61,227 nucleotides of DNA. Source: an uncultured Thermoplasmatales archaeon. Lineage in GTDB: Archaea; Thermoplasmatota; E2; UBA202; DSCA01. The stretch's first letter is position 1. Each line of letters starts with the position of its first letter. Positions 25,149 through 61,227 of this stretch are shown here, in pieces. The stretch is taken from assembly GCA_964606745.1 (NCBI GenBank), contig CAZSHJ010000004.1, positions 1 to 61,227 on the forward strand, read 5' to 3'. Made by a program: the position numbers and the translations under genes. Under the pieces are notes generated by a model. That model had not been told where the DNA came from. It worked only from the letters and a program-made list of their open reading frames with translations, and searched no databases.

Positions 25149-25371
25149 GTAATGGGATGAACAGTAGTTCCGAAAGTGCCTAATTCCGCCAATCATTTTT
25201 GTCTGTAAACAACAATATAATGTGATTTTAGTTGATTTTTTCATTAAAACCACCTTATTAAATAATCATTTCACTTCAAAAATTGTGTGATTAGTTTAAA
25301 ATTACTAAAAACCCACCTTCTCCAGATTGGAGAACTGGATTAAAAATCAATTTTTATCATTGAGTAACATG

Positions 25372-38003: not shown

Positions 38004-38229
38004 TTATCAAAATATATTTATCATATAAAAAACCAATGAAAATAAATTTGGTACCTCCAATTTCATGAATGTTTTTGCCCATTTATAGCGATAAAAAGGT
38101 AGAGCAGGTATTCCTTGGCATTTTTGTTTGCTAAAACACTCTCTGTTCAAAAATTCTAAACTCAATTCATATCTGTTGGGATGGCCATTCCTTGGCGTTT
38201 TTTAGCATTCGGAACTACTGATGAATGAA

Positions 38230-38280
38230 CAGTAGTTCCGAAAGTAGCTAATTTCGCCAATCATTTTTGCCTGTAAAATA
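38230..38280. mobile_element. Terminal sequence of a second sister element
   Basis: CAGTAGTTCCGAAAGTAGCTAATTTCGCCAATCATTTTTGCCTGTAAA closely matches 25162-25210 and is preceded by ATGAA. Confidence 0.8.
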
Positions 38281-54280: not shown

Positions 54281-54398
54281 GATTTCGAATGTGAACGGAA
54301 TTATTAAATTGTTGGGGATTAATATTTTTTACTTTTTATTTTTACCCAAAATATCCCCAATTTCACCCACCAAATCAACGATAATATCGCTGATATAA

Positions 54399-54497
54399 TT
54401 TGGAGTAGATTTACAACACTACACATATCTTGATGAGAATGAGTTGAAGGAGATTTACAATAAAGTAATTCCCGATTATATGATAACCAAAGCATAA
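54399..54497 (+). pseudogene. Tyrosine-integrase 3' stub 1 (repeat Z1)
   Basis: My translation FGVDLQHYTYLDENELKEIYNKVIPDYMITKA* aligns with VDLRHYAYLDAGDLKKIYDKV at 60859-61014. Confidence 0.65.
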
Positions 54498-54519
54498 ATT
54501 TACATTATATCATATTCTT

Positions 54520-56046
54520 TTATGTAAATACTTGGACAGCATATTCTGTTATTGTTTGAGTTTTTTCTGTATCTGTTGTAAGAAGATTAAATCTCAGTAC
54601 TAAATCGTTATCGTCACCGTCGCATTCGATAATAGTGTTCAAATCTTGTGATGTTGCATCCCAAGTTAATCCTCCATCTGATGATACATCTACGGTTACT
54701 ATAGTATCGGTGGGTACATTAACTTCTGCAACTATAAAAATGGAGTTTATATCAGAATTGAATGCAAAACTGTTAGTCTGAATGATGCTATTTGAAAACT
54801 CGGCTTTATATGTTTCAATATTTGACGATTGTATAACAGGACTATAAGTGGTTACAAAAGCTATTGAACTTGAATAGATTGGCTTAAATTCTACTCCATT
54901 TGGTTCCATGCCTCGATCAATTGCGAAATAGCAAATATAAACCCAATGTTCTTGGATTGCGTCATAAACCCATAAGTATAAACGAGCATGTTGGGCCACA
55001 TCTCTGCACCCAATGTCTGCCGTAACTTTGCCAATCCAAGCTTCATCAAAATGATGCCTTCTAATTACTCGTACATCTGCACCCCATCCAACTCTTTCTT
55101 CCATTCCAGGTTCCGTTGAATGCGGTAGTACTGAATTAGAATTTTGACATATATATCTATCATAATCGTATGAGTGAATGTCAGCACTCCATTCAGCATT
55201 TGTTGCTCCACCTCCTTCGTTTGGCATACTATCTTTTACAGTAAATATTCCTTTGTAATTTGCATTCGTATTTCCAACATCTATTGTATTGAGTGCTCCG
55301 CTCTCCTGAGTCATGATGTCTACAGTTGCAGTGTCGTAATGATTGTGTATTTCTGTCAAGCCTATGCTCATAGTTTCTGATAGGTAGTAGCTGTTCCACA
55401 AAGTTTGGATTATGTTCTGTAAATGTGCCGTTAAATAATCCTCATCTACAGGTCCTGCTGGTCCCATCGGTCCAGTATCTCCTGTACTGCCTTTATCTCC
55501 CTGCAGACCTTGCTCTCCTTGAGGTCCAGTTTCTCCCTGCAGACCTTGCCCTCCTTGCGGTCCTTGAGGTCCAGTATAACCCCTTGGTCCTCGCAGTCCT
55601 GTTTCGCCTTGAGGTCCAGGTGGTCCTCGAGGTCCTTCGGGACCAATTAATCCTGTTGGGTTTCCCATCCAGTTTCCATTGCTATCGATTATGATATTTC
55701 CATTTATTGCAAGATTACCAAATATATCCAGTTTGGCATTTGGATTGTTTGTCCCAATGCCTACATTGCCTTCTGGTATTAAGAACAAATTTGGTGGATT
55801 GCTCCAGTAATCCCAGTCTTTGTTGAGTATTCTATAATTTGGCAATGATGTAGAATCTTCAGACTCACCCATTTTATTTACTTCTTCCTGCAAGTTTTGA
55901 AAGACATTGTTTTCTGTTTCACTTTCCGATATAATACTATCTCTTTCTACATCGTTTTTATCTCCGTTCATTGTTCCTGCTATTGGTAAAACAACAGAGA
56001 CAATGAGTACCATACAAACTACTATACCCAATTTTTTTGCCATCAT
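54520..56046 (-). CDS. Exported collagen-repeat protein with phage tail-fibre-like motifs
   Basis: Signal peptide; [16 protein letters not shown]; 23 G-X-Y triplets (55447-55653); C-terminal VSSDGGLTW beta domain. Confidence 0.8.
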
Positions 56047-56251
56047 GTTTTCTCCCCAATAAGCAATATAAAACCAAAGATAAATCTTTTGTATAGCACA
56101 ATTGACAACTCAACTATAGTTAACAAATAGTTTTCAAGATATTCCGAAATAGTTACGCCAAACAGATGCAACTTAACTATCTGTTCCTAAAGAATTTTTT
56201 TAAGGCTCATCGATTTTTGTTTTTCTTAACTTTTTAGCCATGTATTAAATT

Positions 56252-56382
56252 GGCAGAATGTATCAAATAATTTCAGTCTACAAGATATACTGCCCCGTGG
56301 AGTCTGGTTTCCCTCTTGAAGCAATGCCCTTGTGACAGGATGCTCATCCAGTTAATGATGTAACTTTTTATCTAACTTTATT
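56252..56382. repeat. Intergenic repeat X, copy 1
   Basis: Shares TATCAAATAATT, ACAAGATATA, GCCCCGTG, TTTCCCTCTTGAAGC and ATGTAACTTTTTATCTAACTTTATT with 58086-58217. Confidence 0.85.
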
Positions 56383-56389
56383 CTTGATT

Positions 56390-56496
56390 GTTACGAATCT
56401 AAGCAGGGGTTGGTATGATTACACCTTCTTGCCCATTTTTGGTGTTTTTCTTATCTGTTGGAATGGGTTATTTTGTAACATTATTGACATGGTTTT
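56390..56496. repeat. Intergenic repeat Y, copy 1
   Basis: 59-bp core 56406-56464 is 58/59 identical to 59900-59958. Confidence 0.9.
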
Positions 56497-56644
56497 CTGT
56501 CCTATAAGCAACTACATGGAATTTATGCATCAGTGCAGGAGAATTCGAGGTAAAGAAGAGAGCTTTAAAGGTGATATTTGATATAGTAGTGACAAAAATA
56601 AATAATTTAGGTCTTATGTTGTGCTGTATCTTATTGCCGAGTAT

Positions 56645-57013
56645 TTATTCAGCAACCTGTCTTACTTTATCACCTATTCTAACTGATGATTTTTCTTCTT
56701 CTTCTTTTTTTTCTTCTTCAGACACAATTAATCTATCCCTTATATTAGCCATACTTGTTAGAATGGGAAAGGTGGAATACGAAGGAGTTGTTGCTCTGCT
56801 CATTTTTTCTTGCACTTCTCTCACGACCACTCTTGCCTTTACTATCTCAATATTACCTAATACGTTCCCAGTATCAGGATCTTTAATAGAGCTGCCCTCA
56901 TCGTATATTATAAAAGTCATTCCTTCCTTAACTCCGTGCTCAAGTCCACGATTAATATAAACAGTATACTCGTCTAAAATTCTAGCAATCTTGCCCCTAA
57001 TTAATTCAGCCAT
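56645..57013 (-). CDS. FlgT-C-like beta-barrel protein
   Basis: VYINRGLEHGVKEGMTF, IKDPDTGNVLG, VVREVQEKMS. Confidence 0.65.
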   Translation of the reverse strand: MAELIRGKIARILDEYTVYINRGLEHGVKEGMTFIIYDEGSSIKDPDTGNVLGNIEIVKARVVVREVQEKMSRATTPSYSTFPILTSMANIRDRLIVSEEEKKEEEEKSSVRIGDKVRQVAE

Positions 57014-57052
57014 TTTATCATCCTTCGTAAACCAAGAAATAGGTCACATTTT

Positions 57053-58036
57053 TTAAATATTTCCCATCATCGATTTTGTAACAAATACGGTTTTTTCCAA
57101 ATCACGGATGTCTGTTCCTTTGAAGATAGTTGGTATATGAACATACAACCTATTGCTGAATGCAGCTAAAACGTTGTTATTAAGCAAAATGTTGTTTACC
57201 TTTTCTCCCCATATGTCCTTGGAATCATCATCACACATGTAATATGCTTGGGCAAGGTCATCACTTTTCTGGAGATGAAAAACTTTCAAAGTCCCGCAAT
57301 ATTGCTCAATGCCACTCTCAATATTGAATAATTTTAATATCATGCCATTCTTTAAATATTTGCAATTTTTAATTATGGCAATCGGATGCCCTTTATTAAT
57401 TATTCTAAATTCAATAACTTTCGCATCTTCTCCATCAATTTCTTTTTGATACTTTTTAGACCAAATAATAGCTTCATATACGCTTATCATTTCCATGATT
57501 AAATCAAGTTGATTTGGTAAGATTTTTTTCTTTATATACCCAATTCCTTCAATCCCAGTTAAACGAGATATTAAATTAATTGTAAGACCCCCCCAGTCAC
57601 AGTAGGGTATATCAATGTATCTTATAAATCCTAAATCTGAGGGAATATACCTCTTTCCATCAATTTTTTGTGATAAAACTAAAACAGGTTTTTGGAACCC
57701 ATAAGCCATACCCAATTCTAACATTACATTTTCTTTTATTACTGATGACCCACCATTTTTTATCGGAGTTATGTCAGCAATACATATCTGACAAGATTGG
57801 ATCTTCTTACATATATCGCAAAATAAGCCCTTTTCTGGTGATATTTGTCTATCCGCAGTAATTAATTCGAAATTATTCTTGCCATACCTTGTTTCGAGTC
57901 CTATCTCAACTGCCAACTCTCGTAGTTCTCTTTCTCCATCGAAGGGCTCAATTAGGAAATAATGATTGGGATTTATTTTGATAGGACTGTAAGGACATTG
58001 CCCAACAACTGGACAGACTTTTATTTCTTCGTACAT
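57053..58036 (-). CDS. Nucleoside-2-deoxyribosyltransferase-like (TIR-like fold) domain plus C-terminal beta-barrel
   Basis: FLIEPF, ICIADIT, NVMLELGMAYG, KPVLVL, IPSDL..IRYI. Confidence 0.7.
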   Translation of the reverse strand: MYEEIKVCPVVGQCPYSPIKINPNHYFLIEPFDGERELRELAVEIGLETRYGKNNFELITADRQISPEKGLFCDICKKIQSCQICIADITPIKNGGSSVIKENVMLELGMAYGFQKPVLVLSQKIDGKRYIPSDLGFIRYIDIPYCDWGGLTINLISRLTGIEGIGYIKKKILPNQLDLIMEMISVYEAIIWSKKYQKEIDGEDAKVIEFRIINKGHPIAIIKNCKYLKNGMILKLFNIESGIEQYCGTLKVFHLQKSDDLAQAYYMCDDDSKDIWGEKVNNILLNNNVLAAFSNRLYVHIPTIFKGTDIRDLEKTVFVTKSMMGNI

Positions 58037-58085
58037 TTTATGTTCAGTAAGTGAATGGATAACTATAACTTAATATTTTTTGATG

Positions 58086-58217
58086 GGCAGGTTATATCAA
58101 ATAATTCTAATTGACAAGATATAACGCCCCGTGTAGTTACTTTCCCTCTTGAAGCGAATGCTCTTTATGATGTGATGTCCGTTCAATGAATAATGTAACT
58201 TTTTATCTAACTTTATT
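58086..58217. repeat. Intergenic repeat X, copy 2
   Basis: Homologous to 56252-56382. Confidence 0.85.
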
Positions 58218-58273
58218 ACTTTACAAAATAGAGTTTTTAAAGATTTTCAAAGAGCATTATTTTATCAGATATT

Positions 58274-59701
58274 TTATCGGGTGTAGTGCATCAGCACTTC
58301 TGGTATTTCATGTATTACATCACTGGCTGTCATTCCATAACCTTTTTTTTCAAAGGCAAGATTCCCTGCAGTCCCATTCATAAATGCCCCCATTCTCGCC
58401 GCATTGTATGTGGGAACATCTTTTGATAGTAAAGAGCCGATGATACCCGATAATACATCACCCGTGCCGCCAACCGTCATGCCCTCATTGTGAATATGAT
58501 TTATTTTTAAGTTTTCCCCGTTACTTATTATATCCACTGCACCCTTCAGAAGTATCGTGCATCCTCTTCTTTTCGCCTCTTTTTTCACAATCTCTTTTCT
58601 CTCCTCGAGTTCGTCCGGCAAAGTTATACCGGTCAATTCCTTAAACTCGCCGGCGTGGGGAGTTATAACGATGTTGCCATTGCATTTCCTTTCACCAAAC
58701 GCCCGTATGGCATCTGCGTCTACAACCATTTTCTTATTCAGGGATATGCCCTCGTCAATTACATCTGCAGCAAATTCCTTTGTTTCCTCTCTGTTGCCAA
58801 GCCCCGGGCCAATCACAACTGCATCCACTCTTCCGAGAAATTCCCTTATCATCGGGCTATGCTCCGCCTGCAGAAAATCTCCGTCGAGAGGCATGACTAT
58901 CATGTCGGGCGAAAATGATGCAACCATCTTCCATACTCTCCGGGGAGTGAATACAAATGACAGATCAGCTCCGGTCTTCAATGCAGCCATAGCCGCCAGG
59001 GCAGGAGCACCCGTATACGATCCCCCGCCTATCGTAAGCACCGCACCGTTCTCCCCCTTGTGGGAATTCTCCTTTGGCACGGGATAATATATCATGTCTC
59101 CGGGGCCCACCGCCACCACCGCCGCCTCCGGTATACCTATGTTTGCCACAATTATTTTGCCGCTGTTTTCCTCGGTCATTCCGTCCTTTCTATCGTGGAA
59201 GGTTACGGTCGCATCGGGCTTTACGCTTATTTTACTCCCGAAGCCGGTCGGTATGTCCACGGAAACGACTCTGGAATGGCTTCCGTTTACAATTTTTACG
59301 ATTTCTCTGTACGGCTGCCGCAGTTCCCCGGATATGCCTATGCCGAGCATCGCATCCACAATCAGTTCGCTTTCATGCAATATTTTTTCAATCCCGCTCC
59401 CGTAGCGTTGGACAAAAATGCCCAGTTTTTTTACTTTCCTGAAATTCTTTCTGGCAAGCAACGACTTTGATTCCTTCAACATTACAACATTAACATTGCA
59501 CTTTCTCGAAAGGTAACGGGCGGCAACAAGCCCATCTCCTCCGTTGTTACCTGACCCGCATAAAACAGTACAGCATCTGCAATCGAATTTTTTGTTTATA
59601 AAATCAGCTACCGCCCTTCCTGCGTTTTCCATCAGCATCCCGGCAGGAACTCCATAAAAAGCCGAATTGGCATCAAGCACCTTGACTTCCGTCGGACGCA
59701 T
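58274..59701 (-). CDS. nnr: Bifunctional NAD(P)H-hydrate epimerase/dehydratase
   Basis: LMENAG, GSGNNGGDG, SHKGENG, TPHAGEF, GGTGDVLSG. Confidence 0.95.
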   Translation of the reverse strand: MRPTEVKVLDANSAFYGVPAGMLMENAGRAVADFINKKFDCRCCTVLCGSGNNGGDGLVAARYLSRKCNVNVVMLKESKSLLARKNFRKVKKLGIFVQRYGSGIEKILHESELIVDAMLGIGISGELRQPYREIVKIVNGSHSRVVSVDIPTGFGSKISVKPDATVTFHDRKDGMTEENSGKIIVANIGIPEAAVVAVGPGDMIYYPVPKENSHKGENGAVLTIGGGSYTGAPALAAMAALKTGADLSFVFTPRRVWKMVASFSPDMIVMPLDGDFLQAEHSPMIREFLGRVDAVVIGPGLGNREETKEFAADVIDEGISLNKKMVVDADAIRAFGERKCNGNIVITPHAGEFKELTGITLPDELEERKEIVKKEAKRRGCTILLKGAVDIISNGENLKINHIHNEGMTVGGTGDVLSGIIGSLLSKDVPTYNAARMGAFMNGTAGNLAFEKKGYGMTASDVIHEIPEVLMHYTR

Positions 59702-59823
59702 ACCAAAAAGTTAAACAGTGAGAATATATAACATTTGCATATTTATTTGATTTCTCCTAAAAATTAAGAGAACTGCAAGAGCGTGTTTTGGTAAAAAAAG
59801 AAAAATGCAAAAAGCAAGTGAGT

Positions 59824-59882
59824 TAATTTGGGGTAGATTTACAATAAAGTAATTCCTGATTATATGATAACCAAGGCATAAA
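59824..59882 (+). pseudogene. Tyrosine-integrase 3' stub 2 (repeat Z2) with a 44-bp internal deletion
   Basis: Matches 54396-54498 but lacks the segment between the two AGATTTACAA repeats (54407 and 54451). Confidence 0.7.
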
Positions 59883-59884
59883 GC

Positions 59885-59990
59885 GTTACGAAACTCAAGG
59901 GGGTTGGTATGATTACACCTTTTTGCCCATTTTTGGTGTTTTTCTTATCTGTTGGAATCGGCTAAATTGTAACACTAGTGACATGATTTT
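59885..59990. repeat. Intergenic repeat Y, copy 2
   Basis: Directly follows the Z2 stop codon; homologous to 56390-56496. Confidence 0.9.
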
Positions 59991-60091
59991 TAATGGTTTA
60001 ACAACTCAGGCTATTGCAGTATTATTATATAATGCAACCCTACAGATAAGACCATCTTGAATATCGTAATTTTAGAGAGTTTTACAAAAGT

Positions 60092-60328
60092 TCATTCATC
60101 GAGATATTCTTGTGTTAACCAGCCTTCTTTTTTCAAATCGTCAATAAATCCTTTCATATATTGTTTTGTATGTCCCCAGTAATGTGTCATGGTATCATAC
60201 AGTATTTCTTCCATTTCTGATACAAGTATTCTTTTACCCTCTCTCTTATAATCTATTTTTGTTTTATTAATAACCCTGATTAACGTATTACGTTTCATCA
60301 TTCTTGGCACTCTAGGCATGTTTATCAA
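60092..60328 (-). CDS. Small basic hypothetical protein
   Basis: 78-aa ORF, possibly wHTH-like (FIDDLKKEGWL). Confidence 0.5.
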   Translation of the reverse strand: MINMPRVPRMMKRNTLIRVINKTKIDYKREGKRILVSEMEEILYDTMTHYWGHTKQYMKGFIDDLKKEGWLTQEYLDE

Positions 60329-60408
60329 CCATAAATGCTTAGCGAAGTTAAATATTTTATTGATTAGAACCTGAATAAGTCCATTTCAATCAATCCAGCA
60401 ATTTTCCC

Positions 60409-60528
60409 CTAAAAAATATTGGGCGGAATATCCTTATTGAACAAAATCGAGAGCTTGCAGTCATCGCAGATGCCGTCAGGATTTGTTGTCTCGTTCACGC
60501 CGCAGATTATGCAGATGACTTTTGGCAT
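60409..60528 (-). CDS. 39-aa zinc-finger micro-protein (not in ORF track)
   Basis: MPKVICIICGVNETTNPDGICDDCKLSILFNKDIPPNIF*; CxxC-x11-CxxC. Confidence 0.6.
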   Translation of the reverse strand: MPKVICIICGVNETTNPDGICDDCKLSILFNKDIPPNIF

Positions 60529-60658
60529 GGTGTGACTTAAGCTGAATAGAGTTAAAAAAGGTTTTGGGAAGTAAGAAAAGGATATACAAAAAATTATTTT
60601 CGGTTTTTATCGAGCGAACCAGTAACACTTAAATATTGGAAACAAGATTAAATGAAGC

Positions 60659-60862
60659 ATGTCTGTTATAAAGAGTATAGAGCTCATAGGCAGCTCCCCG
60701 GACGGCTGGGAGGATGCTGTAAGGAATGCTATAGACGAGGCGAGAAAAACCATAAGAAACATAAGGAGGGTTACGGTAAGTGACCTCGAAGTGCTCGTGG
60801 AGGATGACCGGATAGTGTCGTACCAGTCAAAGGTAAAACTCTATTTCACCATAGAGGGATGA
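60659..60862 (+). CDS. Dodecin-family protein
   Basis: IELIGSSPDGWEDAVRNAI, KTIRNI, YQSKVKL. Confidence 0.92.
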   Translation: MSVIKSIELIGSSPDGWEDAVRNAIDEARKTIRNIRRVTVSDLEVLVEDDRIVSYQSKVKLYFTIEG

Positions 60863-61014
60863 AAGATATAGAAGGGGGAGATGCAGCCAAGGAGATTTTG
60901 ATGGGGCATTCATTGAAGGGCAGCGTTGATCTACGGCATTATGCTTATTTAGATGCGGGGGATTTGAAAAAGATTTACGATAAAGTTGGAGTAAAAATAG
61001 GCTTAGGGCGTTAA
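60859..61014 (+). pseudogene. Tyrosine-integrase 3' stub 3 (box II region)
   Basis: MKDIEGGDAAKEILMGHSLKGSVDLRHYAYLDAGDLKKIYDKVGVKIGLGR*; LMGH followed by a candidate catalytic Tyr (HYAY). Confidence 0.7.
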
Positions 61015-61038
61015 AGAAAACTGAACATATAAATTCAA

Positions 61039-61227
61039 ACTAATAGAGAGGGTATATACTTACAGATATAAATTAACTAACTAATAGAGAGGGTATATAC
61101 TTACAGATATAAATTAACTAACTAATAGAGAGGGTATATACTTACAGATTAGAATTAATAAGTAATAGATAAGGTATATACTTACAGATTAGAATTAATA
61201 AGTAATAGATAAGGTATATACTTACAG
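61039..61227. repeat. 40/41-bp minisatellite truncated by the window end
   Basis: Core GGTATATACTTACAG at 61051, 61092, 61133, 61173, 61213 (periods 41, 41, 40, 40); two unit variants. Confidence 0.95.

Follow-up and report, generated by a model that had tools for sequence, protein, structure and literature searches.

The 61,227-nt stretch of DNA analysed here (hereafter the window), a contig of an uncultured Thermoplasmatales archaeon, carries near its right-hand end, within 6.6 kb, three short 3' ends of tyrosine integrase genes, referred to below as tips 1, 2 and 3. With a probability of roughly 75%, we interpret these tips as non-functional relics of SSV1-type (type I, 'suicidal') integrase genes, of which 20-50 codons at the 3' end survive; the genes would have resided in mosaic mobile elements and been reduced by deletion and integration-module replacement, without any crossover at the positions of the tips having made them. 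The host is a Thermoplasmatota archaeon (the closest homologue of its nnr gene is 72% identical), and the tips appear to lie in a mobile-DNA hotspot of its chromosome, two of them inside an 8-kb element with directly repeated ends. The window corresponds to JGI contig Ga0315543_1000239 (sample 3300031651), and the locus L001 extends it by 7 kb, to a contig of 69 kb in all; L001 contains the far end of that element.

All three tips are on the + strand, and translation, alignment and profile comparison uphold the proposal of an initial annotation of the window that they are co-oriented 3' ends of one tyrosine-integrase family. Tip 1 (54391..54497) is what translation and homology show to be left of an SSV1-type integrase gene, about 32 codons at its 3' end: positions 54399-54494 read FGVDLQHYTYLDENELKEIYNKVIPDYMITKA followed by a stop codon, an in-frame stop precedes the tip, and what remains is the catalytic Tyr (in QHY) and the tail, without box II. 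It lies 118 nt from the mobB start codon, at the left edge of a low-GC island (island 1). Tip 2 (59819..59882) had been proposed to be a deleted DNA copy of tip 1, and DNA alignment agrees: two blocks are 88% (26 nt) and 91% (55 nt) identical to this paralogue, and 44 bp delimited in tip 1 by a pair of AGATTTACAA copies (54407-54416 and 54451-54460) are missing, a length that shifts the reading frame. It is found 77 nt inside the attL of the 8-kb element and ~118 nt from the nnr start codon.

Tip 3 (60859..61014) is likewise a 3' relic, from another subfamily of this integrase family, and retains both LMGHS and the Tyr. Its 51-aa open reading frame (ORF) is undamaged, reads MKDIEGGDAAKEILMGHSLKGSVDLRHYAYLDAGDLKKIYDKVGVKIGLGR and begins with an ATG that overlaps the stop codon of a dodecin gene as ATGA; it is called as a gene in the JGI annotation, contrary to the earlier statement that none of the tips is to be found among the window's ORFs. 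Its homology to integrases can be relied on from ~60877 onward; between 60823 and that point it is doubtful, and an extension of tip 3 to 60823 was rejected as too weak and as overlapping the conserved dodecin C-terminus; an extension of tip 1 back to 54354 was likewise judged too weak. Tips 1 and 3 share 67% identity over 21 aa (E = 4e-7) in a within-window comparison, in which no further sequence of the window resembled either. ARAGORN finds no tRNA gene either in the window or in the adjoining 7 kb, in agreement with the proposed lack of a tRNA target.

The tips alone match no Pfam family, since of the catalytic residues they keep just the Tyr and, in tip 3, the His of box II; a search of the PDB with a tip profile matched no chain. 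A four-sequence tip profile, run on a set of 1.84 billion representative proteins, returned 107 matches with E-values down to 8e-19 at integrase C-termini: ~41 are proteins of 120-370 aa matched at their extreme C-terminus, ~49 are short ORFs of 31-115 aa, and ~17 are low-complexity sequences with several matched stretches each. All of the longer matches tested (10/10) pass PF00589, which supports the assignment of the tips to a recombinase family; because these C-terminally matching proteins pass and the tips alone do not, the latter are to be regarded as fragments of tyrosine recombinases and not as members. One relative (P0026) further passes PF16795, Phage_integr_3 'Archaeal phage integrase' (29.4 bits against a cutoff of 27, positions 4-159 of 161), and five others fall below that cutoff at 18-21 bits. 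A word-index search with tip 3 gave short ORFs only, two of which, P0002 (75 aa) and P0004 (80 aa), reach upstream through VKDLRKFFSQEWERLNGSY; these two, P0005 and full-length relatives carry KDLR, KYLR or KHMR upstream of LMGHS, that is KxxR and not HxxR, a motif downstream of which the window's own tips begin. KxxR in place of HxxR is a signature of SSV1-type integrases (PMC8371274). P0026 also aligns to archaeal XerA (5hxy, E = 4e-4), where the tip region falls on ILGHA..TQIYTHL, which corresponds to box II and the nucleophile Tyr; the initial identification is in this way sustained, tip 3 carrying LMGHS plus the Tyr and tip 1 the Tyr and tail only. These sequence comparisons identify the tips as stemming from the C-terminus of tyrosine recombinases in an SSV1-like family.

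The setting of tips 2 and 3 is decisive for how they are read. The host gene nnr (58274..59701, - strand), encoding an NAD(P)H-hydrate epimerase/dehydratase, stands beside NAC in relatives, and in three of these (L017, L018, L019) the two genes are divergent neighbours, 38 nt apart, with an uninterrupted spacer. Here the spacer is split by an insertion bounded by a 23-nt direct repeat, GAGA(AT/TA)ATATAACATTTGCATAT, whose attL copy, GAGAATATATAACATTTGCATAT, is at 59720..59742 and whose attR copy is at L001 17040-17062 (window-equivalent 67698-67720), past the window end; the two copies are spaced by 7,978 bp, and the core extends as far as the NAC start codon. When the sequences left of attL and right of attR are joined, they align without gaps to the spacer of all three relatives, and an intact 351-aa integrase (PF00589 at 3e-35, with an HKFR motif of the classical HxxR kind) ends 35 nt before attR. 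With directly repeated core copies flanking it, an integrase gene close to one flank and relatives whose site is empty, the insertion is an 8-kb element that entered the nnr-NAC promoter spacer through ordinary site-specific recombination and duplicated the 23-nt core. The element locus is 100% identical in contigs of four other samples.

The left 1.5 kb of the element (59743..61227, + strand) comprises tip 2, a repeat unit (R2b, treated below), a 78-aa ORF, a 39-aa ORF, the dodecin gene, tip 3 and the start of a tandem-repeat array, and the remainder (L001 10570-17039) a 123-aa ORF, a copy of a second repeat (R1c), a 180-aa integrase, five ORFans, a further R2 unit (R2c) and the intact 351-aa integrase. 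The GC content of its ORFs is 0.31-0.39, as against 0.46-0.48 for host genes; the dodecin gene (60659..60862, + strand) has a host-like GC of 0.47, and because it lies inside the repeat-bounded insertion it is to be seen as cargo or a captured gene and not as a resident host gene. The initial annotation had each tip directly following a host-type gene, which is superficially so for tips 1 and 2 with their distances of ~118 nt from the mobB and nnr starts, but tips 2 and 3 and the dodecin gene are all carried inside the insertion. Tips 2 and 3 do not mark junctions with the host; they are interior to an element whose att core is an unrelated 23-nt repeat. The resident 351-aa and 180-aa integrases were also considered as donors of a tip in the form of an att repeat and were ruled out, their C-termini being unrelated to the tips.

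Two further features of the element were observed. The 180-aa protein (L001 11908-12450) consists of the catalytic domain only (PF00589 at 4e-35, positions 2-170 of 172), and such an integrase without the N-terminal DNA-binding domain may represent either a minimal recombinase or the C-terminal product of a gene that has been split. Directly after tip 3, eight tandem AT-rich units of 40-41 nt (GC 0.22) run from 61028-61227 on to L001 10662, an array that could be iteron-like.

In its manner of integration the element resembles type II (lambda/pNOB8-style) intergenic integration as in psiM100 (PMC8371274): like it, the 8-kb element keeps its integrase intact beside attR, a short AT-rich core is duplicated, and the target is a promoter spacer and not a tRNA. 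It differs in that the target is the divergent nnr-NAC promoter, with the core ending at a start codon, and in being an ORFan mosaic that contains two dead integrase tips and a second, 180-aa integrase. As such it offers a cleanly delimited case of integration into a divergent promoter with a duplicated core.

Where the family of the tips normally recombines can be read from its longer members. In a full-length 370-aa gene (L013), codons ~78-92 coincide with a stretch (866-907) that resembles an antisense tRNA T-arm and acceptor and gives weak Rfam matches to tmRNA and mascRNA, and the N-termini of several profile matches are translated tRNA 3' ends (QVAGSNPAGG, GSNPAGG, PGSNPG). In the closest longer relative of tip 3 (L023), an open frame of 294 codons begins within sequence reminiscent of the 5' half of a tRNA, a likeness judged by eye, with neither ARAGORN nor Rfam calling a tRNA there. 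A tRNA-derived attP inside the integrase ORF is found in this way for relatives only; because their tRNA-like att lies in the 5' part of the ORF, a canonical crossover would leave a C-terminal fragment of ~270-290 aa, far longer than the 20-50 aa of the tips. At the edge of a head-tail provirus (L014) there is indeed an integrase fragment of 291 C-terminal aa. This provirus, at L014 8001-16876 in metagenome-assembled genome GCA_014361245.1, encodes terminase, portal, Mu F and capsid proteins and has its SSV-like integrase copy at the left edge; the SSV1-like integrase family is widespread in metagenomic Thermoplasmatota, head-tail provirus included.

The breakpoints of the tips, mapped by alignment to two longer copies (L016, Ga0180298_1004549, and L009, the latter a frameshifted longer remnant), point in the same direction. 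The homology of tips 1 and 2 stops at the SLKKS|VDLQ codons (~54391-54402 and ~59819), L016 homology to tip 1 beginning near 54393-54402, and they would share this breakpoint because both copy one already truncated relic. Tip 3 loses homology elsewhere, at ~G..AKEIL (~60877), and the relatives vary again: the tip in L006 begins at ETPLRVKDLRKFF, 84 nt past a tRNA-Leu; the copy in L011, L012 and L020 is degenerate and extends to MGHS or further; the 45-aa tip of L022, which begins at PASIKKILMGH, has a host gene on one side and, on the other, an intact tRNA-Val whose 3' end adjoins it; and in P0046 the tip is fused in frame to an N-terminal piece. No shared core was found upstream of the breakpoints of the window tips and their relatives, and no direct repeats were found at tip junctions in the window, L001, the flanks of island 1 or L006. 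A tblastn search of the 69-kb contig with 15 full-length relatives detected no N-terminal integrase part, recovering only the three tips and weak matches to two unrelated integrases, which bears out the earlier remark that the rest of the integrase is missing; no element flanked by N- and C-terminal integrase parts sharing an att core was found. As a separate observation, tip-1-type relics occupy one host locus, after metK-usp, in three related Thermoplasmatales genomes (L011 5031-5126, L012 2365-2460, L020 2068-2196).

The proposed origin of the tips in decayed SSV1-type genes has a known counterpart in the int(C)/int(N) pseudogenes of SSV1-type archaeal integrases, reportedly described by She and colleagues in 2001. 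An att site within the integrase gene, the type I 'suicidal' arrangement, is already known (PMC7253208), and integrase pseudogenes left by suicidal archaeal integrases are documented (Badel et al. 2020, PMC7253208). Relatives of the tips share with these systems the KxxR motif, a PF16795 match and a tRNA-like att inside the ORF, and in both cases integrated copies decay and are reshuffled between elements. The tips differ in their length, 20-50 aa as opposed to ~270-290 aa, in not being beside a tRNA and in having no N-terminal partner; moreover, their host is a Thermoplasmatota archaeon known from metagenomes only, whereas the cited literature describes hyperthermophiles. Integrase pseudogenes and the reshuffling of modules are already documented, and the new instances here are the family, the host clade, the 8-kb element and the R2 unit.

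On this basis an origin can be proposed for each tip. Circularisation of the element would bring tip 2, oriented like the intact integrase, to a position ~135 nt downstream of that gene and of attP, and the tip may represent the remainder of an older SSV-type integrase whose 5' part was displaced by the new integration module. Tip 3 would be a second relic, of the other subfamily, with its 5' part probably lost where the dodecin segment joined. Tip 1 would be a copy of the truncated relic seen in tip 2, residing in the neighbouring decayed island, and the 44-bp loss in tip 2 may be attributed to slippage or to microhomology deletion between the 10-nt repeats. The mosaic illustrates integration-module replacement together with the capture of a gene of host-like GC, the dodecin.

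Several observations weigh against this reading. Tip-1-type copies keep their reading frame, and between L012 and L020 there are 5 synonymous and 3 non-synonymous differences; the counts are tiny, and a synonymous excess is odd for long-dead DNA. Neither an integrase nor a bounding repeat was detected in island 1. No full-length integrase of the tip-1 subfamily was found: word-index searches gave tips only, scans of genome and metagenome collections for such a gene yielded one locus each, and the tip-1-type copy in L016 ends at the contig edge. The search for full-length integrases suggested by the initial annotation accordingly succeeded for the family, with long relatives such as the 370-aa protein of L013, and failed for the tip-1 subfamily and for a matching 5' half in the contig. 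In addition, the tip profile detects C-termini only. Finally, L011 and L012 are near-identical, with a common host flank and tip, and diverge exactly after GTTACGAAA, a divergence point that hints at a recombination site.

The arm GTTACGAAA opens the R2 repeat, which follows the integrase stop codon in copies of tip-1 type and underlies the alternative that survives best. R2b (59880..59978, + strand; 105 bits with a covariance model) is a unit of ~90 nt closed by the inverted repeat GTTACGAAA...TTGTAAC. R2a (56385..56484, + strand) is 91% identical to R2b and is preceded by a copy of the R1 repeat (R1a) and not by an integrase tip, and R2c (L001 15496-15596) has a different interior. With the covariance model, three copies are found in the contig, two in L012 (2459-2557, 3174-3272), two in L016 (2796-2894, 1-40) and one in L020 (2195-2274). 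The closing stem has 9 bp (GTTACGAAA/TTTYGTAAC) with arm starts 80-82 nt apart, and encloses two inner hairpins; R2c (at L001 15499-15594) folds strongly, with z = -3.8 and -5.0 on its two strands. In L016 a longer tip-1-type 3' end, MGHSLKKSVDLQHYTYLDENDLREIYDKVIPDYIITKA and its stop codon, is followed by 2 nt and then by GTTACGAAA and R2, and the order of integrase stop, 2-3 nt, GTTACGAAA and R2 recurs in L012, L020 and tip 2, from which R2 is identified, at the level of sequence, as the native 3' flank of the tip-1 integrase subfamily. R2 has no Rfam match, the viral contig collection holds no match for the tips, the 351-aa integrase or R2, and we regard R2 as an undescribed repeat.

This arrangement raises the alternative that the integrase 3' end plus GTTACGAAA forms one att arm and R2 the other, with the attP of the tip-1 subfamily abutting the integrase stop; arrays would then arise by serial integration or cassette exchange at this core, and a variable region would keep the tip on its left border as an arm for integrase binding. 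Besides the constant junction and the L011/L012 divergence just past GTTACGAAA, this would account for the return of R2 after gene blocks of 0.7-2.8 kb, which R2 units bracket in L012 and L016, for the retention of the 80-82-nt length and the 9-bp stem even in R2c with its differing interior, and for the integrase 3' end that abuts a tRNA att site in L022. The motif KTTACRAAA occurs 11 times in L001 against 1.5 expected, but this enrichment comes mostly from the R1 and R2 repeat families themselves. Moreover, no intact integrase is seen beside R2, tips 1 and 3 lack R2, tip 2 and R2b are carried inside an element with a different, proven core, and there are just three R2 copies in the contig; a terminator, a small RNA and a repeat like a miniature inverted-repeat transposable element are equally plausible identities for R2. 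We consider this account unlikely, if worth keeping in view.

Its most developed form, in which the integrase 3' end, GTTACGAAA and R2 of the tip-1 subfamily constitute a recombination platform with R2 units bounding exchangeable gene blocks beside the integrase gene, a cassette or serial-integration system of Thermoplasmatota mobile elements in which the tips persist as the fixed arm, appears slightly less likely still. Such a system would resemble integron cassette arrays in that small blocks of genes, lying downstream of a gene for a tyrosine recombinase (L012, L016), are parted by structured imperfect palindromes of conserved length. It would differ from them in that most R2 copies are 80-90% identical, the R2 arrays seen hold just two units and there is no IntI-type integrase. 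R2 was also tried as an integron attC and rejected: its arms, GTTACGAAA...TTTCGTAAC with GTT/AAC outermost, do not fit RYYYAAC...GTTRRRY, and no IntI was found.

Far less probable is the mode of integration put forward in the initial annotation, an undescribed att-within-int reaction with attP within the last ~30-50 codons, by which integration at non-tRNA targets leaves a C-terminal tip at attL and a near-complete N-terminal part at attR. The breakpoint common to tips 1 and 2 in different flanks, the presence of AGATTTACAA both at that breakpoint and at the deletion endpoint, and the lack of a nearby tRNA would fit such a reaction. It founders on the absence of any N-terminal partner in 69 kb, on the differing breakpoints of tip 3 and the relatives with no common core (the outcome by which its author had proposed to refute it), on the 5' location of att in relatives and on the position of tips 2 and 3 within another element. 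Where other mobile elements carry such relics, a cluster of integrase tips beside seemingly host genes can pass for new integration chemistry. Least credible of all is that the tips are expressed micro-proteins, for instance integrase C-tail decoys against incoming related integrases with tip 3 translationally coupled to dodecin, since against the undamaged tip 3 ORF with its ATGA overlap, its identity in four other samples and the slight synonymous excess in tip-1-type copies stand a tip 1 without a start codon, a frameshifted tip 2, arbitrary short-ORF starts in relatives (often the Met of LMGHS) and the lack of a family or structure match for a stand-alone peptide.

Island 1 (54281..58273), the low-GC stretch (0.28-0.39) between host mobB and nnr, contains in order tip 1, a collagen-repeat secreted protein (- strand), R1a, R2a, a 122-aa ORF (-), a 327-aa ORF (-) and R1b; synteny downstream of nnr is not conserved in relatives. 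The first of these proteins (54520-56046, -) is secreted-looking, has 508 aa, and its collagen Gly-X-Y repeat matches phage tail-fibre families, which are also the only matches that PADLOC and PHROGs searches of the island ORFs gave; Rfam found no match on the islands. The 327-aa protein (57053-58036, -) has weak matches, below cutoffs, to Nuc_deoxyrib_tr and the CAP12 TIR domain, and the adjoining gene encodes the 122-aa protein (56645-57013, -) with an FlgT_C-like match; the two could be defence-type cargo, with no PADLOC hit. R1 is a non-coding repeat family of ~145-290 nt whose copies (R1a, 56119..56382, + strand; R1b, 58083-58228; R1c, L001 11518-11787) are 78-85% identical, two of them ending in CTTTACAAAA; R1a and R1b bracket the 122-aa and 327-aa genes, and R1c lies ~120 nt upstream of the 180-aa integrase.

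Elsewhere in the window, a 53-nt direct repeat (92% identical) occurs at 25157-25209 and 38225-38277, 13 kb apart and starting just upstream of the S19e gene. It brackets a partly low-GC stretch with a DDE transposase, two ParB-like genes and no integrase, and this repeat pair may mark another integrated element.

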